64,000 nucleotides of DNA. Origin: an uncultured Clostridia bacterium. GTDB lineage: Bacteria > Bacillota > Clostridia > TANB77 > CAG-465. Positions 12,554 to 62,862 of the stretch are shown in pieces; the first letter of the stretch is position 1; every line of letters begins with the position of its first letter. The translations under genes and the position numbers were made by a program. Location of the stretch: NCBI GenBank assembly GCA_944388545.1, contig CALXJE010000040.1, forward strand, positions 13,938 to 77,937, in the 5' to 3' direction. The notes under the pieces are model-generated. The model was not told the origin of the DNA and did no database searches. It saw only the letters and a list, made by a program, of their open reading frames with translations.

Positions 12554-12802
12554 ATGGAAACTACGGGAATAGTTAGAAAATTAGATGAATTAGGTAGAAT
12601 CGTTCTTCCGATGGAACTTAGAAAAACTTTAGATTTAAAAGTAAAAGATTCGATTGAAATAACAACAGATAAAGGATCTATTATATTAAGAAAATATTCT
12701 CCTGCATGTATATTCTGTGGCAAAGAAACAAAAGTTGCCAACTTTAAAGGAAAGAATATTTGTTCTAAGTGTTTAAATGAGATTAAATTACAACTAGATT
12801 AG
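12554..12802 (+). CDS. AbrB/SpoVT-family transition-state regulator homologue with Cys-containing C-terminus
   Basis: Swapped-hairpin N-domain TGIVRKLDELGRIVLPMELRKTLDLKVKDSIEI. RBS AAAGGAGG upstream. C-terminus carries CIFCGK...CSKC. Confidence 0.75.
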   Translation: METTGIVRKLDELGRIVLPMELRKTLDLKVKDSIEITTDKGSIILRKYSPACIFCGKETKVANFKGKNICSKCLNEIKLQLD

Positions 12803-12862: not shown

Positions 12863-13309
12863 TTATATATTATGTTTAGTAAGTTTTTCAAGCCTTCTTT
12901 TTACTTCCTTTTCCTTTATAGTCTCCCTTTTGTCATATAATTTTTTTCCTCTGCAAAGTGCAATCTCTATTTTTGCATATTGTCCTTTAAAATATATTTT
13001 TGTTGGTATTAATGTATATCCATTTTGCTTAATTTCATTTAATAGTTTTAATATTTCAGATTTATGAAGAAGTAATTTTCTATCTCGCCTTTCATTTACG
13101 TTATTTATACTACCATGGTTATACGGTGCTATATACATATTTTTTAATATAACTTCACCATTTTTTATAACAGAAAAACTATCTTTAAGACTTACCTTAG
13201 ATTCCCTTAACGACTTAACTTCTGTTCCTTTAAGAGATATACCACATTCTATCTTTTCTTTTATTTCATATTTATGTGTTACCTCTTTATTAGTTGAAAT
13301 AATTTTCAT
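12863..13309 (-). CDS. smpB: SsrA-binding protein SmpB
   Basis: KEVTHKYEI...GISLKGTEVKSLR...IKNGEVILKNMYIAPY...GYTLIPTKIYFKG..AKIEIALCRGKKLYDKR. Confidence 0.9.
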   Translation of the reverse strand: MKIISTNKEVTHKYEIKEKIECGISLKGTEVKSLRESKVSLKDSFSVIKNGEVILKNMYIAPYNHGSINNVNERRDRKLLLHKSEILKLLNEIKQNGYTLIPTKIYFKGQYAKIEIALCRGKKLYDKRETIKEKEVKRRLEKLTKHNI

Positions 13310-34169: not shown

Positions 34170-34979
34170 TTATTTTTTAGCTATATCTATACCTTTTACC
34201 CTTACATTAATTCCAAATATATTTATTCCTGTAGCATATACTAATTCTTGTGTAACAGTATTTTGAAGAATTTTAGAAACCTTAGGTATACTATATCCAT
34301 ATAGTACATTTATATCAATATACAAATTAATACCATCTATAAACTTCTCAATATTAATTCTAGACAGTTTAGTTATTCCATTAATATTTTTGGTAGAATA
34401 ATTAATAACATCTTTTATAACCTTATCTGATATATAGAAATTACCTAGATAACTAAATGTTGGTCTTATAATACTCTTTTCATGGAATTTTTTATCCTTT
34501 TTTTCAAATATTTTTAAAGGATCCATAAAATACCCTGAAAATTGTTCCTTTATTTCTAGAGTTGGAACTGGTACAACATGTTTACCTTCAACCTTTCTTA
34601 CTCTTTTAGCTTCTTCAATTTCTTCCTTTGTTGCTACATCCTCAATATATATTGTTTTTTTAATTTTAGGAAGATTTAAATTTTCAGCTATTTTTTCTAC
34701 CATTCCATCTGACGTGCCGAGAATTAATATCTTATCTGGTTTACTACTTTTTATGGCTCTTTTCATTAATTCGCATTTAGCAACATCATTAAATATAGCT
34801 GATTTAACAGATCCTATCTTTGTAGGTTCTGTTTTGGCTGATTTACCCGCTATTACTTTATTTTTATAAATTAATATAGCATCATCTATTATATAATTTA
34901 TTCCATTTTCGTTTGCTACCTCTTGAGCATGATGACTTTTACCTGTACCACTAGGGCCTACAAATGCATATACTTCCAT
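34170..34979 (-). CDS. P-loop NTPase fused to Asp23/Gls24-like C-terminal domain, hypothetical
   Basis: Walker A FVGPSGTGKSHHA at the N-terminus. C-terminus YGYSIPKVSKILQNTVTQELVYATGINIFGINVRVKGI resembles the Asp23 family. Confidence 0.5.
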   Translation of the reverse strand: MEVYAFVGPSGTGKSHHAQEVANENGINYIIDDAILIYKNKVIAGKSAKTEPTKIGSVKSAIFNDVAKCELMKRAIKSSKPDKILILGTSDGMVEKIAENLNLPKIKKTIYIEDVATKEEIEEAKRVRKVEGKHVVPVPTLEIKEQFSGYFMDPLKIFEKKDKKFHEKSIIRPTFSYLGNFYISDKVIKDVINYSTKNINGITKLSRINIEKFIDGINLYIDINVLYGYSIPKVSKILQNTVTQELVYATGINIFGINVRVKGIDIAKK

Positions 34980-37312: not shown

Positions 37313-38626
37313 TTATATTAAATACAAAGCTATTCTAAAACCAGTACTCGAACTTGCTTCATTGCTAAATGAACCATATCTAGTTGATGCTCCTCCATCT
37401 GCTCCTCCTTTATTTAAATTATAAAAACCTCCTCTTGTTGCTATAATACTTGAACTCATTTCCATAGTTATTTCATATATATTTCCAGCTATATCATATA
37501 TGTTTTTAGCTTTCCAATATTCACTACTTCCTGTTTTTTGCAATGTACCTGCCCCATCTACTTGTTTTTCACTACTAACACTACTATTATAATCTTTATA
37601 ATTCCCCCAGTCACTTGAATCAGTAACATTCACATCTGTAGATAAAAATCTTAAAACGGCATCCCATTGTACTCCGTAACATAATGTTGATACTATAGCT
37701 TTATTACCACTATACATATTTCTTGATAATTCTATTGCGCCCTTCCCTTGATTTGTTGTTTCATCCCAGTAATCTATTACATCTCCTGTTGTTGATATTC
37801 TTGTTGGTCCCCAGCCTACATAGTTATATACATATGCTCCTTTTTTTACTACTACATCTGTTGTACCATTTGATTTATCTGTTCTTTCAACATTAGTACC
37901 TGTTTCATATCTACCTATATAAAAGCCTTTATATTTTTGTACACTAGTTTTCATTGCAGCATACTCAGCATATTCTCCTGTTAAATCATTATCTTCTGAT
38001 AATGTTACAGTAGCTCCATCCCTACAGCCACTACCAAACTCATAATCTGTACACACATTTGTTGCAGGCTCAATATAAGCAGAATTTAAGCCAGATACTG
38101 GTTTATTATCAGACCACTCAGTTCTTACAAAATCAGAAAAATTTTCAACAGGGACCCATACAAATTCATTACCATTTTTATCTTGAATTACTATACCTGT
38201 ATCTTTAGTGCCATCTATGTAAACAAAATCTTCTGGAATTATTATACTATATGTCATATTTTTTTCCTTATATATTGTATTTACAGTCCCCTCATCTGTT
38301 ACAATATATGCTCCGTTTTCGTTTCCAGTTTTTATTCCCGCCTCTTCTAACTTTTTATTTGCATAGTCAGAAAATTTTCCGGTATTATTAGTTTCTTGTT
38401 TTTGCTCTTCCTCAGACATTAAATTCCATTCTAGCTGAACAACTGCAACTAATTCTTTTACACTTGCTATATCACTTTTATTTTTTGCTTCTTCTGCTCT
38501 TCCTATTATTCCGCTATTATTTAATGTTAGTATTATTGCTCCTGCCAATATTATCATGACTATTATTGTAATTACTAATACTATTAGCGATATTCCTCTT
38601 TTTTGTTTCCTTAGTTTTTCTTCCAT
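37313..38626 (-). CDS. Membrane-anchored FGE-sulfatase-domain protein, paralog 2
   Basis: N-terminus KRGISLIVLVITIIVMIILAGAIILTLNNSGIIGRAEEAK is near-identical to paralog 1. C-terminus GNIYEITME...TRGGFYN...GFRIALYLI. Confidence 0.65.
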   Translation of the reverse strand: MEEKLRKQKRGISLIVLVITIIVMIILAGAIILTLNNSGIIGRAEEAKNKSDIASVKELVAVVQLEWNLMSEEEQKQETNNTGKFSDYANKKLEEAGIKTGNENGAYIVTDEGTVNTIYKEKNMTYSIIIPEDFVYIDGTKDTGIVIQDKNGNEFVWVPVENFSDFVRTEWSDNKPVSGLNSAYIEPATNVCTDYEFGSGCRDGATVTLSEDNDLTGEYAEYAAMKTSVQKYKGFYIGRYETGTNVERTDKSNGTTDVVVKKGAYVYNYVGWGPTRISTTGDVIDYWDETTNQGKGAIELSRNMYSGNKAIVSTLCYGVQWDAVLRFLSTDVNVTDSSDWGNYKDYNSSVSSEKQVDGAGTLQKTGSSEYWKAKNIYDIAGNIYEITMEMSSSIIATRGGFYNLNKGGADGGASTRYGSFSNEASSSTGFRIALYLI

Positions 38627-38879: not shown

Positions 38880-39107
38880 CTATTTAACTATTTCTAATCC
38901 TTCTAATATCTTTTCTATATATGTCAAATCTATTTTATTATCAAGTTCAAATCTTTTTTCGCCTATTCTAATTGCATTTTCAGATATAACAGTAAAAGAA
39001 AATAACAATTGCTCTTTTTCATAAAAACTTAAATCAAATAATCCTGATGGGATAGAATCTTTATTTTTATCTTTAGAATTATAACTACCTTTTATATTAT
39101 ATGTCAT
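38880..39107 (-). CDS. Small hypothetical ORF (75 aa)
   Basis: ORF only. No RBS or motif support checked. Confidence 0.25.
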   Translation of the reverse strand: MTYNIKGSYNSKDKNKDSIPSGLFDLSFYEKEQLLFSFTVISENAIRIGEKRFELDNKIDLTYIEKILEGLEIVK

Positions 39108-39359
39108 ATTTATAAGTGTCTCTATGTTTTTTCATCTACAATATCATAAGCTAAAAATGAAGCTTTTTGCCATCTAATCCTATCTACGTTACTTAAATCA
39201 ATATTAATTTTCAATTCTCTATTATATTTTTAGTATATCATATCATTCCATTTTTCTTTTTTTGTAGACACTTTTTGATATTTATTTACATTTTTTCTTT
39301 ATTTTAAAACAAAAAAATAATTCTTAAACATTAAATTGTTATATTTAATATTTAAAGAA

Positions 39360-39920
39360 CTATTTTTTTACTTTCTTTCTATCTACTTCATTATTTGCTT
39401 TTATAGGAGCAAATATGTGAACTACGCTACCTACAAAGTACATTATTTCATTGCAATTATCTATTGCTTTCTTCTTTCCAATTGCTTTACCACCCACTGT
39501 CAACGATGCTACAACGCCTCCTACAACAAGTGTAATTATAAATGTATTAATACCAAGTGTATTACTTAAAGTAACAGATATAAGGGCAGAAAGTGAACCA
39601 CTAACTATACCACATACATCACCTACTACGTCATTACATATACTGGTAACTTTTTCTTTAGAACGTATAAGTTTAATAGTTTCTTTTGCGCCTTTGTGTT
39701 TTTTAGCTGCTTTTGCATGAAATGGAGCTTCTTCACAAGTTGCAACTGCCATTCCTATCATATCAAAAAATATTCCTATACCAATTATAACAATTAATAC
39801 TAGGAACGCTATAACTATATTAATTTTACTTAGTAGTGCGTTAGATACTCCATTAAATATTATTGAAAGCATAAATGTAATCACAAATGTTTTAATAATC
39901 CATTTATTACTATCTTTCAT
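39360..39920 (-). CDS. oapA: OLE-associated protein A-like 4-TM membrane protein
   Basis: 186 aa, about four TM helices, DxxxD motif (NDVVGDVCG, D97/D101). Lies immediately downstream of and co-oriented with the large ncRNA region. Confidence 0.6.
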   Translation of the reverse strand: MKDSNKWIIKTFVITFMLSIIFNGVSNALLSKINIVIAFLVLIVIIGIGIFFDMIGMAVATCEEAPFHAKAAKKHKGAKETIKLIRSKEKVTSICNDVVGDVCGIVSGSLSALISVTLSNTLGINTFIITLVVGGVVASLTVGGKAIGKKKAIDNCNEIMYFVGSVVHIFAPIKANNEVDRKKVKK

Positions 39921-39960
39921 TTTACCTCATCATTTCTATTTATACTATATATGTTATGGC

Positions 39961-40521
39961 AATATACTAAGTAAATTTTGCGGCTTAAGGTCAAGTTGGA
40001 TTTCCCCGATCGTTACTACTAGTTACCTTATAGCGGTTTCCCTTTAAAACAATCGACTAATAGTCACCTGATTAGTTACTCGATTACCACTGAGACCACA
40101 CTTCAATCCTTAATATATCAACATTATATGTTACAGTCTAGAGGTTTTCCCTAACAAAACTTAAACTATCTTTATCCGCTTTTGCAAATATAATTTCAAG
40201 AAACAGATATATAATCCACATGGCCTAAGAGGATTATATATGAACTTTCTATCCCGTATATTCACTCACGACAGGCTACAATATATATAGTACTCTCTAT
40301 ATATATGGTTACGTTTTAAATAGAGAAATAACTTAAAACGTGAGCTGAAAAAAAGGCAGTGCTTTTGTATGCCATTACAAATCCACCTTAATTTCTAAAA
40401 ACTCATACATACACCCCAGTCTGGGCGACCAAAGCATATATACAAGCCGCTAATATGTGCCTTTTAATGGATTTTTAGGCCCATCTTCAAATAGTGTTTT
40501 GACTAGAATACTGCGCCATAC
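39961..40521 (-). ncRNA. Large structured non-coding RNA, candidate OLE (ornate large extremophilic) RNA
   Basis: About 560 nt with no ORF in any frame. Locally higher GC than the flanks. Its own consensus sigma-A promoter on the minus strand. Immediately upstream of the oapA-like gene. Ends are approximate. Confidence 0.55.
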
Positions 40522-40528
40522 AACATAT

Positions 40529-40557
40529 ATTATACCATTTTAAAATAAAATAGTCAA
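40529..40557 (-). promoter_or_regulatory. Sigma-A promoter driving the ncRNA
   Basis: Minus strand TTGACT (40557-40552), 17-nt spacer, TATAAT (40534-40529). Confidence 0.7.
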
Positions 40558-40569
40558 ATTTATAATTTA

Positions 40570-41685
40570 TTATTCTATGTATATCCTATCTACTCTTTTT
40601 CCTATAGTTGATATGATTTCATAATTAATAGTTTTACAAATATTTGCTATTTGATTTAACTTATCATCTTCAAAATCAAACAAATCAACATAGTCTCCAA
40701 CCTTTATATTGTCTATATTGGTAACATCTATCATTGTCATATCCATACATATATTACCAAGTATTTTAGCTTCTTTTCCTTTTACAGTTAAAGCATATTT
40801 ATTAGATAGACTTCTATTTAGTCCATCTGCATAACCTATTTGAATAGTAGCTATTTTAGTCTCTTTATCTGTAATATATGTTTTAGAATATCCAATTGCT
40901 TCTCCCTTATCTATTTTTCTTATATCACAAATAGGAGCAGAAAGTTTAAATATACCCTTTAAATTAAGATTACATCTATCTAGTACAGTTTTATCAAGAT
41001 ATCCATACATTCCTATTCCTAGTCTTACCATATTATTGTAAGATCCTGAATATTCTGCAATACCTATACTATTACATATATGTATAAATTTATATTTTAT
41101 ACCTGCCCTATCTAATTCATAAATACACTCCTTAAATATTTCATTTTGTTTATATGTATATAATCTATCAGAATCTGCACTTGAAAAATGACTAAATATT
41201 CCCTCTATTTCTAAATTATCTAGCTTTTTTATTTCTTTTGCAAATTCTGTTATATTTTTAGGTAAAACACCTATTCTTCCCATACCTGTGTCTATTGCTA
41301 TATGTATATTTGCCTTTTTCCCATACTTTTTGCAAGCCTCATTTAACTTTATTGCAATATCAATATTTGTTATTGCATAAGACGCCTTTGTATTTACAGC
41401 CTCTTCTATATCTTCTGGAAGTAAACCAGAAAATACAACTATGTTACTTTTTATTTTATTTTCTCTTAAAAGCTTTGCTTCTTTTAAATATGCAACTCCA
41501 AGATAATTAATATTAAGTTTTTCTAATACACTTGCCACTTCAACTATTCCGGCTCCATATGCGTCTGCTTTAACCATTGCTAAAATTTCTATATGTTTAC
41601 CTTGGCTACTTTTATCTATATATTCTTTTATATTTATTATATTACTCTTTAAATTTTTAAGATTTATTTCTAACCTAGCTGGCAT
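40570..41685 (-). CDS. alr: Alanine racemase
   Basis: PLP-lysine region ILAMVKADAYGAG. Fold-III N-terminal barrel plus C-terminal beta domain. Confidence 0.85.
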   Translation of the reverse strand: MPARLEINLKNLKSNIINIKEYIDKSSQGKHIEILAMVKADAYGAGIVEVASVLEKLNINYLGVAYLKEAKLLRENKIKSNIVVFSGLLPEDIEEAVNTKASYAITNIDIAIKLNEACKKYGKKANIHIAIDTGMGRIGVLPKNITEFAKEIKKLDNLEIEGIFSHFSSADSDRLYTYKQNEIFKECIYELDRAGIKYKFIHICNSIGIAEYSGSYNNMVRLGIGMYGYLDKTVLDRCNLNLKGIFKLSAPICDIRKIDKGEAIGYSKTYITDKETKIATIQIGYADGLNRSLSNKYALTVKGKEAKILGNICMDMTMIDVTNIDNIKVGDYVDLFDFEDDKLNQIANICKTINYEIISTIGKRVDRIYIE

Positions 41686-42511
41686 CGTTTACACCTCTTA
41701 CATATTGTTCATACATTACTATACTAGTTGCTGTTGCTACATTAAGAGATTCCATTATATTTTCCATTGGTATTTTTATAAATTTATCACACTTATTTAA
41801 TATTTTATCTGTTACACCGTTTGCTTCATTTCCCATCACAAATATTGTTTTATTATCTATTTTTTCATCTTTTATATAGTTTTTAGAATCTAATGCTGTT
41901 CCGACTAATTTATATCCATTTTGTTTTAATAGGTTTATCATACTATCTATTTCAAATTCATTTATATTAAAAATATTTACTTTTGTTATTCCTCCCATTG
42001 TACTTCTTACAACTTTAGGAGAAAAACTATCTACCGTTCCTTCTATGCAAATTAAGTTTTTAATTCCAAAACTTATAGCGCTTCGTATGATAGTTCCAAG
42101 ATTTCCAGGATCCTGCACCTTATCTAAAATTATATATTTTTCATCCCTATTTAAATCTAATCTATTTTTTAAATCATCTACCTTATATTCATTTTTATTT
42201 ATAACTGCTAAAACACCTTGTGGTGTCTCTAGATCTGAAATATATTCAAATATTTCTTTTGTTACTTCTACTATGTTATACTTTACATTTAACTTCTTAA
42301 TTATATCTATAAATCTATTTCCTATAGTAGTACTCTTAAGAATATCTTCAGAATAAATAATAAACTCAGGGGCTATGCCTTCTGAGTTTATTATTTCTTC
42401 AACCATTTTTATTCCCTCAATAACATATTTATTATATTTGTTTCTATATTTTTTATTTTTCAAACTAAAAATATATTTTATAATGTTATTAGTTTTACTG
42501 GTTACTATCAT
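41675..42511 (-). CDS. TrmH/SpoU-family RNA 2'-O-methyltransferase
   Basis: N-terminal L30e-like substrate-binding domain. SPOUT motifs LVMGNEANGV and VATATSIV. Confidence 0.75.
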   Translation of the reverse strand: MIVTSKTNNIIKYIFSLKNKKYRNKYNKYVIEGIKMVEEIINSEGIAPEFIIYSEDILKSTTIGNRFIDIIKKLNVKYNIVEVTKEIFEYISDLETPQGVLAVINKNEYKVDDLKNRLDLNRDEKYIILDKVQDPGNLGTIIRSAISFGIKNLICIEGTVDSFSPKVVRSTMGGITKVNIFNINEFEIDSMINLLKQNGYKLVGTALDSKNYIKDEKIDNKTIFVMGNEANGVTDKILNKCDKFIKIPMENIMESLNVATATSIVMYEQYVRGVNDAS

Positions 42512-49754: not shown

Positions 49755-50633
49755 TTGATACAAGAAACAGATCAGATGCAACCTACTCGAAGAAGAAAAG
49801 GAAATGTTAAATTAAACAAATCTAAAAAAAAGAAAAAATTAGCAGTTTTTATACTCATAATATCTCTTATTGCTGCAATTTTCTCTATTCTACTTGCTAT
49901 AAAATGGATATATGATAACAATAAATCACAAGAAATTTCCGAAGAAATAAATGAAATCACTGATGTTACTGAGGTTACTGATGAATCTAATGTCGAACTA
50001 ATAAATCCACCTGATAATAAATCTAATGATTATTGGGATTTTATAAAAGTTCCTTTAATTAATGTAGACTTTTCAGAATTAATAAAAAGAAATAAAGATA
50101 CAGTCGGATGGATAAATGTAAATAATACAAATATAAACTACCCTGTTGTTCAAACAACGAATAATGAAGATTATCTAGATACAGCCTTTGATGGTTCTAA
50201 AAATCAAGCTGGATGGATATTTGCAGATTATAGAAACGATATGAAAAACTTAGACAAAAACACTGTTATATATGGGCATAGTAGATTAAACAAAACCATG
50301 TTTGGTGATTTATTTAATGTACTAAATAAAAGCTGGTATGAGAATAAATATAATAGAATTATTAGACTTTCTACTCCTACTGAAAATACCATGTGGCAAG
50401 TCTTCTCAATTTACACAATTAATCCTGAAACATATTATATTACCACTCATTTTAGTAACGATAATAGCTACACCAAGTTTTTAAATACTATTAAGGATAG
50501 AAGTAACTATAATTTTAATGTATCTTTAAGTAGTAAAGACAAAATAATAACTCTATCTACATGTAGTAATGCAGCAGGTACGGGCAGAATTGTATTGCAT
50601 GCAAAATTGATAAAAAGAGAGGCTAGATTTTAA
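49755..50633 (+). CDS. srtB: Class B sortase
   Basis: N-terminal TM. Catalytic His (IYGHSRLNKTMF), TLSTC cysteine motif, conserved Arg. RBS AGGAGG plus TTG/ATG start. Confidence 0.8.
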   Translation: MIQETDQMQPTRRRKGNVKLNKSKKKKKLAVFILIISLIAAIFSILLAIKWIYDNNKSQEISEEINEITDVTEVTDESNVELINPPDNKSNDYWDFIKVPLINVDFSELIKRNKDTVGWINVNNTNINYPVVQTTNNEDYLDTAFDGSKNQAGWIFADYRNDMKNLDKNTVIYGHSRLNKTMFGDLFNVLNKSWYENKYNRIIRLSTPTENTMWQVFSIYTINPETYYITTHFSNDNSYTKFLNTIKDRSNYNFNVSLSSKDKIITLSTCSNAAGTGRIVLHAKLIKREARF

Positions 50634-50685: not shown

Positions 50686-51357
50686 TTATAATAAAAAAGA
50701 GGGTGTCCTAAAATAGGAACCCGAAAGCCAGAAAATCCAGCTCGATAAGAGTTGGATTTTTTGGTTTGAAAATTTGATTATATTTTTTAGTAGCAAGATG
50801 GCTTTTACCATCGCTTCTTCTTTTAAATTTTCTATATCTTTCATTAACTCGTGTACTTGCTCTTGAAGTTTTACTCTATATTTTTCTACTGCCTTTTTCC
50901 ATACAAATGTGTACTTATTTGCATTTGCCTCAATTTTCGTTCCATCTACAAAGTATTCTTCTGTGCTTATATATCCCTTCTTTTCTAATACTACAAGCAA
51001 TTCTACAAATACATCTTCCATTATGATTTTCATTTTGTCTTTTCTAAATGAATTAATTACATTTCTTGTTGGCTTATTTCCTCCTGCTAACCATATGAAT
51101 TTTATGTCACATTGTACTGCTTCTGCTATTTGTCTTGATGAGTACTTTTTTCTAATATACCCATACATTAATATTTTTAGCATCATTTTTGGAGAGTATG
51201 AATTACTTCCCAAAGGTGAATATGTTTCTATCAGTTTATCAATATTCATATTATCAATTAAATCATTTATCACAAATACTATATCATCTTTATCTATCAA
51301 TGTTTTCCATTCCATTGGTATCATTAATTGGTTTTGTTCATAATATTTAAATCCCAT
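50686..51357 (-). pseudogene. Truncated transposase (N-terminal half only)
   Basis: MGFKYYEQNQLM...MLKILMYGYIRKKYSSRQIAEAVQCDIKFIWLAGGNKPTRNVINSFRK typical of IS1182/IS5 N-terminal domain. No DDE catalytic half. 224 aa versus over 450 expected. Confidence 0.7.
50694..50760. repeat. Left terminal inverted repeat (67 bp)
   Basis: AAAAAGAGGGTGTCCTAAAATAGGAACCCGAAAGCCAGAAAATCCAGCTCGATAAGAGTTGGATTTT. Confidence 0.9.
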
Positions 51358-51446
51358 TTTTATACCTCCAAAGTCGCTATTTTTCACACCTGAATTATAT
51401 CATTAAAGTATTGATTTGTCAGTATTTAGGACGATTTTTAGCAAAG

Positions 51447-55412: not shown

Positions 55413-56672
55413 TTATCTCTCCTCCTTAAACAATTTAACAATTCTTTTGATTCCATCCATGAACTGATCATAACCTCTTGAAATTGTAACTCTAAAACTT
55501 AAATCTTCCAATGGAAGACCAAATACATTTCCTGGCGTAACTAAAATATTTTCCCTTTCAAGAATGTATACAAAAAGTTCATGAGATGTATATACTCCTT
55601 TTTTATGACATGCGTCTTCTCTAAAAGTGATATATATAATATTTCCTGCATCAGGATATACTACATTCTCTACAACATCACTTTCATAGATAAGATACTT
55701 ATAGGTATCCTCAAAAAGAGTAATTATTTGATTGTGATACTGCTCCTTTTCTGCAATATACTGAAGTGTGTCAGGTGAATTTTCTCCTTTGTCTACATTA
55801 ACTCTTTGAGTCATTTCGACAATTCCAAGTGCTTCAAGGAAAGTTGAATTAGAATAGTTTACTGCTTCTCCAAGTTCCAATAACCATCCAATAAACTTAG
55901 GATCTTTGCAAATAGTCCATCCACAACGCAAATCACCAAGTTGAGGAATATCTTTACTGAATCCTTTTATTTTAACTAATTTCTTATAGTCATGTGCAAG
56001 TTTAAAAATTTGAACTCGCTTATCATTAAACATAGGAGCCTCCTCGAAAATCGCATCATATATAATATAGATGTCTTTTTCAATACAAAACTCCACAATT
56101 TTATTAAGCTCATCATAATCAATAAACTTACATGCAGGATTTGCTGGATTTGTAATTAAGAGAGCAACTGTCTTATCTGTATAAGCACTTACAACATTTT
56201 CAAATGTCAGCTTATAATCATTTAACTTATCCATAAAAACAACTTTTGGAATAATTCCATAGAAAGTTAAACTCTTCATAAGTCCAGCGTATGCAGGTAC
56301 AGGATAAATAATTTCAATATCGTTTGCAAAATTATATTCTCTTGCAATTACCTGTGCAATAAAATTAAGTGCGCCCGTTGTTCCATTTCCTCCAACAATT
56401 ACCTCATCATAGCTTATTTTTTGACCTTCAATGTAAGTTTCATGAATAGCAATCAGTTCTCTTAACCGTTTTTTCCCTCCTGGATAAGAGTATCCCCAAT
56501 CCATATCTTCGTTTGAATCTTCCAAGGTTCTATAAATTTCTTTCCTTATACAGGAAAAAAGTGGAAATGTAAACCAATCAAGATTAGATGCATCCATCAA
56601 GAGTGCATGTCGTTCAAGACCAATGTCAAAATATTGTGACATTGTAAGTTTCTCTTTGTGACTATTACTCAT
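55413..56672 (-). CDS. Class I/II (fold-type I) PLP aminotransferase
   Basis: NPANPAC and KGFSKDIPQLGDLRCGW (PLP-Lys). RBS GGAGG plus ATG 56672. 8-nt overlap with the upstream gene. Confidence 0.8.
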   Translation of the reverse strand: MSNSHKEKLTMSQYFDIGLERHALLMDASNLDWFTFPLFSCIRKEIYRTLEDSNEDMDWGYSYPGGKKRLRELIAIHETYIEGQKISYDEVIVGGNGTTGALNFIAQVIAREYNFANDIEIIYPVPAYAGLMKSLTFYGIIPKVVFMDKLNDYKLTFENVVSAYTDKTVALLITNPANPACKFIDYDELNKIVEFCIEKDIYIIYDAIFEEAPMFNDKRVQIFKLAHDYKKLVKIKGFSKDIPQLGDLRCGWTICKDPKFIGWLLELGEAVNYSNSTFLEALGIVEMTQRVNVDKGENSPDTLQYIAEKEQYHNQIITLFEDTYKYLIYESDVVENVVYPDAGNIIYITFREDACHKKGVYTSHELFVYILERENILVTPGNVFGLPLEDLSFRVTISRGYDQFMDGIKRIVKLFKEER

Positions 56673-57759
56673 GTAAGATACCTCCATTTCTATTTTTACA
56701 TGTAAGTACAGTAACAATAGTAGCATTTCTATTACATTTAATATATTCTTCCGTTGCAGCCATTGCTGAAATTGATGTATAGTCATATTTCGCCATAATT
56801 TCTGGATTCATTAAGATGAAACTATCAATCTGTGAATCATTAACAGAAATAAAAAAGGCTTCATTTCTACTAGCCATATCATAGATCTTCCTGTAATTGA
56901 AGCAAGTATCATTTGAAAGAATTGTTTTTGAACTAGTAGGATTTTCAATAACATATAAATAGCTATCTATCCCCTTTTCAAATCCCTGTTTAATAGGATT
57001 TCCTCCAATAATTTCTACCACTCCAATTTTAGGGATTTTTGATATGATTCCTGCATTGTACATTTCTCTAAATGCCAGATTTTGAGCAATAATATCCATA
57101 CCACTACCACAAGGAATAATAACAGTATCTGGTACTTCTTTCATATCTCTAATAATTTCATAAGCCATAGACCTAAGTCCTAACATATATGAAACATTAG
57201 TATTTAAAAAGCCCCAGAATACCTCCTTGTGTTCAAGTGAATACTCCATAAAGTCTTCATAGCTTTTTACAAAAGTGTCACTATAAAAAACTTCATCTGC
57301 ATTTTTAATTTGTTGTAAACTAAAATCATCAACTCCCCTATGAACAAATACAATAGATTTTATTCCATATTCCTTTGCATAATGAACAATTGAAATTGCA
57401 CCACTACCACAAGACACTACTGCTACTTCTCGCTTTTTGTGCATAATGATTTCGTTCATAAAGTTTTCCATACCACGATCTTTAAAACTTCCTGTTGGAT
57501 TAACAGATTCATCTTTTAAAAAGACATTTTCTGAATACCTAATAATAGGAGTATTCCTAGCCTTATTTTTTGTTTCTTTCTGAACTTTTGGAAGAATTAT
57601 TTTCCTATTTAAAAATTTAATTTCAAATTCAGGAAAATAATCCTTTATAGTCCAAAAGTTAGGAGGAACTAAGTCAAGCTCAATGTCACTATGTCTGTGA
57701 TTAATCTGCTCCATTGGATAAGAAAATTGTTTTTTACAAATTTCACAAACAAGTATCAT
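56665..57759 (-). CDS. Threonine-synthase-like fold-type II PLP enzyme
   Basis: N-terminal CxxC zinc ribbon. FLKDESVNPTGSFKDRG PLP-lysine motif. Confidence 0.8.
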   Translation of the reverse strand: MILVCEICKKQFSYPMEQINHRHSDIELDLVPPNFWTIKDYFPEFEIKFLNRKIILPKVQKETKNKARNTPIIRYSENVFLKDESVNPTGSFKDRGMENFMNEIIMHKKREVAVVSCGSGAISIVHYAKEYGIKSIVFVHRGVDDFSLQQIKNADEVFYSDTFVKSYEDFMEYSLEHKEVFWGFLNTNVSYMLGLRSMAYEIIRDMKEVPDTVIIPCGSGMDIIAQNLAFREMYNAGIISKIPKIGVVEIIGGNPIKQGFEKGIDSYLYVIENPTSSKTILSNDTCFNYRKIYDMASRNEAFFISVNDSQIDSFILMNPEIMAKYDYTSISAMAATEEYIKCNRNATIVTVLTCKNRNGGILHE

Positions 57760-62143: not shown

Positions 62144-62398
62144 CTATATTTTATCTAGTTCTTCATAAAGTTCTTCTTCAGAAATTTTTTCTCCTTTATC
62201 TAAAGAGTTTATCCCTTTTTCTAATTCTTTGTATAGTATATGCTTATCTGTTAAAAGTTCATATAATTCAATACTCATCACAGCTAAATCCCCTGCACCA
62301 TTTTTTGTAATATATACTGGACTATTAGTTTGATGACAAATCGTAGAAATTTCGTTATAATTGTTTCTTAAATCAGAGTTTGGTCTAATAATTGGCAT
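62144..62398 (-). CDS. Phd/YefM-family type II antitoxin
   Basis: MPIIRPNSDLRNNYNEISTICHQTNSPVYITKNGAGDLAVMSIELYELL. RBS GGAG upstream. Abuts the toxin pseudogene. Confidence 0.7.
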   Translation of the reverse strand: MPIIRPNSDLRNNYNEISTICHQTNSPVYITKNGAGDLAVMSIELYELLTDKHILYKELEKGINSLDKGEKISEEELYEELDKI

Positions 62399-62654
62399 AA
62401 TAAACATCTCCATTAATATTATATACATATATTATCGAAATATTGATATGTAGTCAATATTTTTTATAAATTATTTGAATAAAAAATTACTATTTATTGT
62501 TACTAATATAGTATCATAAAGAAGAATAATTATTAATTCTATGTAAAAACGAAAAAACAATAAAAATGGCAAGTAATTTTGAATATAGTTTAAATAATGA
62601 AAATTGGTGGAGTTAAGTAATATCAATACTTTTAAATAATTTTAGACAAAAATA

Positions 62655-62690: not shown

Positions 62691-62774
62691 GTGGGCAGGG
62701 ATGGATTCGAACCATCGTAGGCGAATGCCAACAGATTTACAGTCTGCCTCCTTTAGCCACTCGGACACCTACCC
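62689..62774 (-). tRNA. tRNA-Tyr (GTA), class II with long variable arm, CCA encoded
   Basis: GGGTAGGTGTCCGAGTGGCTAAAGGAGGCAGACTGTAAATCTGTTGGCATTCGCCTACGATGGTTCGAATCCATCCCTGCCCACCA. Anticodon loop CUGUAAAUC. Confidence 0.9.
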
Positions 62775-62785
62775 AAATAAAAAAA

Positions 62786-62862
62786 TGGTGGGCCTTCAGG
62801 GATTCGAACCCCGGACCAACCGGTTATGAGCCGGTTGCTCTGACCAACTGAGCTAAAGGCCC
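62786..62862 (-). tRNA. tRNA-Met (CAT), elongator-type; tRNA-Ile2/lysidine cannot be excluded
   Basis: GGGCCTTTAGCTCAGTTGGTCAGAGCAACCGGCTCATAACCGGTTGGTCCGGGGTTCGAATCCCTGAAGGCCCACCA. Anticodon stem lacks the three G-C pairs of initiators. Confidence 0.85.

Follow-up and report, generated by a model that had tools for sequence, protein, structure and literature searches.

A well-preserved OLE RNA next to an oapA gene in an uncultured, A+T-rich member of the Clostridia

Introduction

What is encoded in a 649-nt spacer (nucleotides 39921–40569, between alr and the gene for a small membrane protein) in which the longest stop-free stretch, over all frames, amounts to 43 codons at most? This question is raised by a locus within a 64-kb stretch of DNA from an uncultured Clostridia bacterium (hereafter the window, i.e., the whole stretch that was analysed). 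The original prediction held that the spacer harbors an OLE RNA, and that the adjacent gene encodes the OLE-associated protein OapA.

Among the bacterial non-coding RNAs that still await a biochemical function, OLE is one of the largest and best conserved. The RNA dimerises and may span the lipid bilayer, OapA localises it to the membrane, and the resulting ribonucleoprotein particle (RNP) plays a role in several stress responses (PMC12265935, PMC10898510, PMC12286853). The Bacillota of GTDB have already been surveyed for OLE (PMC11332333). Here, we describe the evidence for reading the locus as the ole-oapA operon of a gut bacterium, uncultured and low in G+C, that belongs to the Clostridia, a reading to which we assign a probability of roughly 0.96.

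Results

A full-length match to the OLE family

When the whole window was scanned against Rfam 15, OLE (RF01071) emerged as the sole non-tRNA match, with a score of 339.7 bits (E 3.9e-96; gathering score of 50 bits) and with an alignment that covers model positions 1–616 without truncation. Rfam also placed two adjacent tRNA genes at 62692–62862 (minus strand). The structured core of the RNA ends at 39961, is directly followed by a conserved GCCA, and lies 40 nt upstream of the oapA start (Table 1). The segment between promoter and membrane-protein gene had been predicted to be free of ORFs over some 560 nt, to end about 40 nt before that gene and to be enriched in G+C, and each of these properties was recovered, although the last one is modest (but real): nucleotides 39961–40521 have a G+C content of 34.4% vs. 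a window mean of 28.4% (sd 3.7), which ranks in the top 4% of 561-nt windows. The proposed assignment to OLE likewise stood once the RF01071 model had been run, and no result of the analysis spoke against it. The segment is an ordinary, well-preserved copy of this known bacterial RNA, i.e., a new example of a class already known.

Table 1. Features of the ole-oapA locus and its surroundings (positions in the window).
Feature	Position	Strand	Remarks
SpoU/TrmH-family (RlmB-like) methyltransferase	41675–42511		
alr	40570–41685		TIGR00492, 334 bits
Putative promoter TTGACT-17-TATAAT	40557–40529	–	sigma-70-type, read from the sequence
–35 element TTGACT	40557–40552	–	read in the sequence
Extended –10 TG	40537–40536	–	gives TGnTATAAT
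–10 element TATAAT	40534–40529	–	17-nt spacer to –35
OLE RNA gene	40535–39940	–	Rfam RF01071 match, 596 nt
OLE conserved structured core	about 40521–39957	–	about 565 nt
Long conserved hairpin with CGCCCAG loop	40402–40446	–	Rfam model positions 93–139
Long P9-type hairpin	40175–40272	–	Rfam model positions 286–384
Palindrome GGCC in P9 terminal loop	40225–40222	–	putative dimerisation loop
P13-type hairpin	40056–40076	–	GUGA tetraloop (40067–40064), 2 closing bp, then one bulged nucleotide
Conserved GCCA	39960–39957	–	directly after structured core
Ribosome-binding site GAGG	39928–39925	–	4 nt before oapA ATG
oapA	39920–39360	–	186 aa, predicted CNNM-like fold; ATG at 39920
DxxxD codons	39618–39632	–	DVVGD, residues 97–101
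Probable intrinsic terminator	39306–39362	–	A/U-rich hairpin, then UUAUUUUUUUGUUUU; from oapA stop codon
75-aa ORF	38880–39107	–	no known family; between oapA and pnp
437-aa protein	37313–38626	–	prepilin-like hydrophobic N-terminus KRGISLIVLVITIIVMIILAG; between oapA and pnp
P-loop/Asp23 protein	34170–34979	–	269 aa; P-loop N-terminus, partial C-terminal Asp23 (PF03780, E 9e-11); adjoins pnp

A predicted OapA homologue downstream of the RNA

Pfam and NCBIfam proved nearly blind to the product of the downstream gene, so that naming it OapA needed a published sequence, a fold search and genomic linkage. BLASTP against a published OapA (Supplementary Table 4 of PMC12286853) yielded 38% identity over 171 aa (E 2e-30) and aligned CNDVVGDVCGIVSG to CNDVIGDISGIVSG of the published protein with the DxxxD motif in register, the DxxxD region of the window protein being paired with CNDVIGD. 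Residues N96, D97, G100 and D101, and with them both aspartates of the motif, show no variation across 32 homologues. The names in the homologue records were uninformative, i.e., “hypothetical protein” and, once, “CBS domain containing-hemolysin-like protein”. Two plus-strand ORFs (39336–39569 and 39451–39720) run antisense to the conserved oapA frame and were regarded as spurious.

The further claim that this 186-aa protein has four transmembrane segments and a DxxxD motif at D97/D101 agrees with four long hydrophobic helices seen both in its hydropathy profile (peaks at residues 7–31, 24–63, 98–116 and 120–147) and in an AlphaFold2 model on 32 homologues (pLDDT 80, pTM 0.72), in which the long helices are predicted at residues 2–31, 35–61, 88–122 and 126–154, together with short amphipathic ones. 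A basic stretch, HAKAAKKHKGAKETIKLIRSKEK (residues 68–90), lies between helices 2 and 3. The Pfam CNNM model (PF01595) reached 20.3 bits (E 4.6e-4) and hence stayed below its cut-off of 28.4, while no other Pfam domain (CBS/CorC included) and no NCBIfam model matched the protein. Among PDB entries, sequence matches at E < 0.01 came exclusively from the archaeal CNNM protein CorB (7M1U, 2e-3; 7M1T, 3e-3), of which 7M1U was the best match in both sequence and fold. A sub-threshold CNNM Pfam match combined with CorB 7M1U as best match is the published signature of OapA (PMC11332333), and the window protein reproduces it. Judged from the alignment, the protein is, as had been proposed, a genuine homologue of OapA, and the model predicts a CNNM/CorB-like transmembrane fold for it.

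These results also bear on the alternative given with the original prediction, in which the segment would be a large structured RNA of a new kind, with no relation to OLE, beside an unrelated membrane protein. Given the full-length covariance-model match (E 3.9e-96) on the one hand and the homology of the protein to published OapA on the other, this reading was ruled out and has, in our estimation, a practically negligible probability.

Co-occurrence of OLE and oapA in relatives

Homologues of the window OapA number more than 4,300 in a large protein collection, and 80 homologue loci (41–86% identity; labelled with an L and a number below) were taken from species-representative genomes. Apart from L080, their titles all name assemblies of Clostridia, Oscillospiraceae, Bacilli or other Bacillota. 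In 14 loci sampled across the identity range, Rfam located OLE directly upstream of oapA and on the same strand in every case, and with an nhmmer profile built from these 14 Rfam matches, 78 of 81 loci were then seen to have an OLE (either complete or cut by the end of a contig) directly upstream of oapA. Of the three loci without a match, two have less than 110 nt of upstream DNA, so only L080 truly lacks OLE.

In this L080 locus (CAZRIC010000025.1, binned as Muribaculaceae, 28.6% G+C), the region L080:2200–3473 has an OapA homologue of 45% identity that follows some 90 nt after the end of a glycosyltransferase-like ORF, and a search with nhmmer at E ≤ 10 detected no OLE anywhere in the 8.5 kb. 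It contains either an orphan oapA or one whose OLE is located elsewhere, and its bin assignment looks doubtful.

Other RNA genes were noted near OLE in some of the relatives. Three Oscillospiraceae loci have a tmRNA gene some 0.7–3.3 kb upstream of OLE (L039:3284–3632, L060:722–1069 and L032:638–987), while smpB, encoding the partner of tmRNA, lies far from OLE in the window (12863–13309). In L015, a Bacilli MAG, a glmS ribozyme (L015:2060–2212, minus strand) is found about 2 kb from the OLE RNA, which is of the variant-2-like kind discussed below.

The same OapA was encountered on metagenome-derived contigs (NCBI, ENA and Logan, including the Logan assembly of ERR4096339), and the close relatives are all titled Clostridia MAGs, several of them from gut samples. 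The host is accordingly taken to be a member of the Bacillota, and presumably an anaerobic one.

Architecture of the RNA

To describe the RNA, published accounts of its helices (PMC11332333, PMC12265935, PMC7936274, PMC12286853) were mapped by us onto the Rfam model, and the P-numbers used here follow that mapping. Base pairs were scored from the cmscan alignments, rather than from a covariance model of our own. Out of 153 testable model pairs, 143 are canonical in the window copy and 10 are non-canonical, with six more being deleted, whereas shuffling of the 3′ partners left a mean of only 66 canonical pairs (sd 5.8, maximum 83 in 2000 shuffles). Compared with the OLE RNA of L039 (Oscillospiraceae, 54% G+C), 132 pairs are canonical in both RNAs, and 58 of these have changed on both sides. 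Between the two RNAs, unpaired model columns are 63% identical and paired columns 44%, as one would expect where a structure has been conserved. The score of about 340 bits is some 100 bits lower than the 420–440 bits of G+C-rich Oscillospiraceae OLE RNAs because the window copy has a G+C content of only 34% and its P7-type stem is about 5 bp shorter.

The long single-stranded motifs conserved in the OLE family are all kept in the window copy, and the motifs matching the consensus comprise GCAGUAUUCUAGUCA, CCUAAAAAUCC, CGCCCAG, AAUGGCAU, UGUAGCCU and GGAAAAC, as well as CUAGACUGU, AGUGGUAAUC, UUUAAAGGGAAACCGC, GGGGAAAUCC and AAGCCGCAAAAUUUAC. The P8-type hairpin is retained, as is the P7-type hairpin minus about five outer pairs. 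The long P9-type hairpin ends in a GGCC palindrome, and in the cryo-EM structure it is through this GGCC loop that the two RNAs make bridge B3 of the dimer, a symmetric kissing-loop contact (PMC12286853). Such conserved loops suggest that OLE may dimerise in this host too. In Halalkalibacterium halodurans, the experimental model system for OLE, the OapB-binding site consists of the bulged U498, U499-G500 and the loop G501–A504 (PMC7936274), and the P13-type hairpin of the window copy has, as predicted from its sequence, the geometry of that site. Overall, P7, P8, the long P9 and the P13 site are all predicted to be present, in keeping with a full-length architecture.

One hairpin of the RNA, i.e., the long one with the CGCCCAG loop, is followed by UUUUU and was the lone site returned by a consensus scan for terminators. 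It was rejected as a terminator, being a conserved OLE hairpin whose U-run is absent from L001–L004, and the U-run has probably arisen by chance in a copy so rich in A+T.

A different possibility is that the RNA is a reduced or decaying OLE, comparable to the published “variant 1” (TANB77) or “variant 2” (RF39), with fewer partners or partly lost function. The host is an uncultured gut bacterium of 28% G+C, its OapA most resembles the OapA proteins of MAG lineages with a truncated OLE (e.g., L007 with 539 nt and L015 with 585 nt), and the P7-type stem has lost its outer pairs. OapB (a KOW/SBB protein) and OapC (YbxF, L7Ae-like) are essential in H. halodurans. No OapB-, OapC- or bS21-like gene was found within the 64-kb window, as searched with Pfam and the PDB and, for OapC, by tblastn with the published protein (the search for OapB had no positive-control sequence). 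Nevertheless, the truncated RNAs themselves look different: in L007, hardly anything is left of P7 and the inner part of P9 has shrunk from 44 to 9 nt (resembling variant 1), and in L015 the P7/P8 region has been replaced (resembling variant 2). The window copy, at 596 nt and with 143 of 153 pairs intact, keeps its P7-, P8- and long P9-type hairpins, the GGCC loop and the P13 site with GNRA loop and bulge. The label “variant 1” was rejected on this comparison, and a reduced OLE seems very unlikely.

Promoter and extent of the transcription unit

Upstream of the RNA, the original prediction had pointed to a textbook TTGACT-17-TATAAT promoter, which is indeed present on the minus strand. It matches 11 of the 12 consensus positions and additionally contains the TG of an extended –10 element. 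However, promoter-like sites in this A+T-rich region were not in excess over chance (16 sites vs. 18.6 expected from shuffles), so that the consensus match alone proves little and the support comes from positional conservation. In about 58 related loci, namely those containing the OLE 5′ motif GCAGUAUUCUAGUC (which was called invariant), the hexamer pair occupies a fixed position, with the –10 element ending 13–14 nt before this motif. The promoter takes the form TTGAC(T/A)-17-TGnTATAAT in the clade of the window and its neighbors, and CTTGTAT-17-TGnTA(A/T)(A/T)AT in the Oscillospiraceae. From this conserved position, the primary 5′ end of the ole transcript is predicted to lie probably at about 40524–40521, in line with the original prediction. 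The locus clearly illustrates how the 5′ end of an RNA can be predicted from a dedicated promoter whose position is conserved.

At the other end of the unit, the consensus scan returned no terminator between OLE and oapA. Folding revealed an A/U-rich hairpin that starts at the oapA stop codon (MFE of –21.8 kcal/mol, z = –6.2 vs. 200 shuffles) and that the consensus scan had missed because its stem has too few G-C pairs. A comparable hairpin plus U-run follows oapA in L001 and L004, and the hairpin is the probable terminator of the ole-oapA unit. Since a position-conserved promoter precedes OLE and this putative terminator follows oapA, the two genes are predicted to constitute a compact two-gene unit with its own promoter and terminator.

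The same arrangement could be expected if the segment were mainly a cis-acting 5′ leader controlling oapA, instead of a stable trans-acting RNA: it is situated between promoter and oapA without an intervening terminator, and the end of the RNA is no more than about 30 nt away from the ribosome-binding site. However, nothing in the conserved 3′ end of OLE sequesters the GAGG site, known leaders fall far short of the segment in size and of its architecture of 159 pairs, and members of the OLE family have been documented as abundant, stable RNAs in a membrane-bound RNP (PMC12265935). We therefore consider the leader reading very improbable.

Gene order around the operon

The flanking genes had been noted to differ from the isoprenoid/recN neighborhood, and the presence of alr and the methyltransferase gene confirmed this for the present lineage. 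Upstream of ole lie mfd and the genes for a PrsA-like PPIase, the SpoU/TrmH-family methyltransferase and alr; oapA is followed by a 75-aa ORF, the gene for a 437-aa protein, pnp and the gene for a P-loop protein with a C-terminal Asp23 domain. The upstream order is kept in the five closest loci (L001–L005, with OapA at least 70% identical), while in the other 75 loci none of mfd, prsA, the methyltransferase gene, alr or pnp was found near oapA. As pnp directly follows oapA in L003 and L004, the 437-aa and 75-aa genes look like a lineage-specific insertion, judging from gene order; the 437-aa protein had no Pfam, NCBIfam or PDB match. The P-loop/Asp23 gene is kept beside pnp in both of these loci.

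A broader linkage between pnp and OLE was considered and rejected, with tblastn placing pnp within 5 kb of oapA in L003 and L004 only, and the arrangement mfd-prsA-SpoU methyltransferase-alr / ole-oapA / pnp is a lineage-specific synteny as far as the compared sequences indicate. PnpA has been proposed as a candidate OLE partner on the basis of a pull-down, and yqhY, of the Asp23 family, is a frequent neighbor of ole (PMC12265935). This parallel with the local gene order offers a weak lead. The synteny of the cell-wall gene alr, pnp and the P-loop/Asp23 gene could also reflect a genuine functional link of the OLE RNP with PNPase and with the cell envelope, in a lineage that would be a natural intermediate between those with full-length and those with truncated OLE, but this extension is improbable.

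Some observations concern the remainder of the window. A 233-aa ORF with a DUF772 transposase domain (50686–51387, minus strand) sits in an otherwise housekeeping region, between a sortase gene (49755–50633, plus strand) and an Orn/DAP/Arg decarboxylase gene. The ORFs of an aminotransferase (55413–56786) and a PALP enzyme (56665–57759), both on the minus strand, overlap by 122 nt as listed, and the true start codon of the aminotransferase is probably further in than the first candidate. Furthermore, a MazE/AbrB-type protein of 82 aa with a zinc-ribbon tail (12554–12802, plus strand) and a Phd/YefM-type antitoxin of 94 aa (62144–62428, minus strand) are encoded.

Discussion

Taken as an ole-oapA operon, the locus would work as follows. 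A strong housekeeping-type promoter would drive a full-architecture OLE of about 565 nt, and OLE and oapA would be produced from one transcript, as suggested by the work on H. halodurans and Clostridium OLE. By analogy with those same systems, OapA dimers may bind OLE and keep a dimer of the RNA at the membrane or possibly across it. The resulting RNP might then help the cell to withstand stresses such as cold, short-chain alcohols, poor carbon sources and excess Mg2+.

The window copy changes nothing in what is known of OLE, and the standard Rfam model detects the RNA with a very large margin. Its practical value is modest: being full in architecture and A+T-rich (34% G+C), it adds many compensatory changes for covariation analysis, and its close relatives with truncated OLE variants could help to define which parts of the RNA are dispensable.

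With regard to the protein, the known systems close to it in fold include the CNNM/CorB/MpfA Mg2+ transporters (PF01595; PDB 7M1U, 7CFG). These differ from the window OapA in having CBS/CorC domains, which are absent from the latter, and their CNNM domains have three transmembrane helices and no DxxxD motif, compared with four helices and a DxxxD motif in OapA (PMC11332333). With its Pfam score below the gathering threshold and without CBS/CorC domains, the window OapA is best described as related in fold, and was not filed as a CNNM member.

The OLE/OapA system of H. halodurans is alike in its RNA, which is about 600 nt long and has its conserved motifs and helices in common with the window copy, in the oapA gene immediately downstream, in an OapA with four transmembrane helices, DxxxD motif and CNNM-like fold, and in the P13 GNRA tetraloop with a single bulge. 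Whereas ole of H. halodurans is embedded in a long polycistronic housekeeping cluster (PMC12265935), that of the window appears to have its own promoter, with a terminator after oapA; its neighbors are alr, the SpoU methyltransferase gene and pnp, and its RNA has a G+C content of 34%.

The OLE RNAs of Clostridium acetobutylicum (577 nt) and C. botulinum likewise come from Clostridia, and share with the window copy the GGCC L9.3 loop (bridge B3) and the CGCCCAG and AAUGGCAU loops. Their dimers have been seen by cryo-EM, and for the window OLE a dimer is suggested by the conserved loops.

Finally, the truncated OLE variants resemble the present case in their uncultured, low-G+C gut hosts, and the neighboring OapA proteins (L006–L026) are 52–58% identical to that of the window. 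The RNA nonetheless fits neither variant definition, in that it keeps P7, P8, the long P9 and P13.
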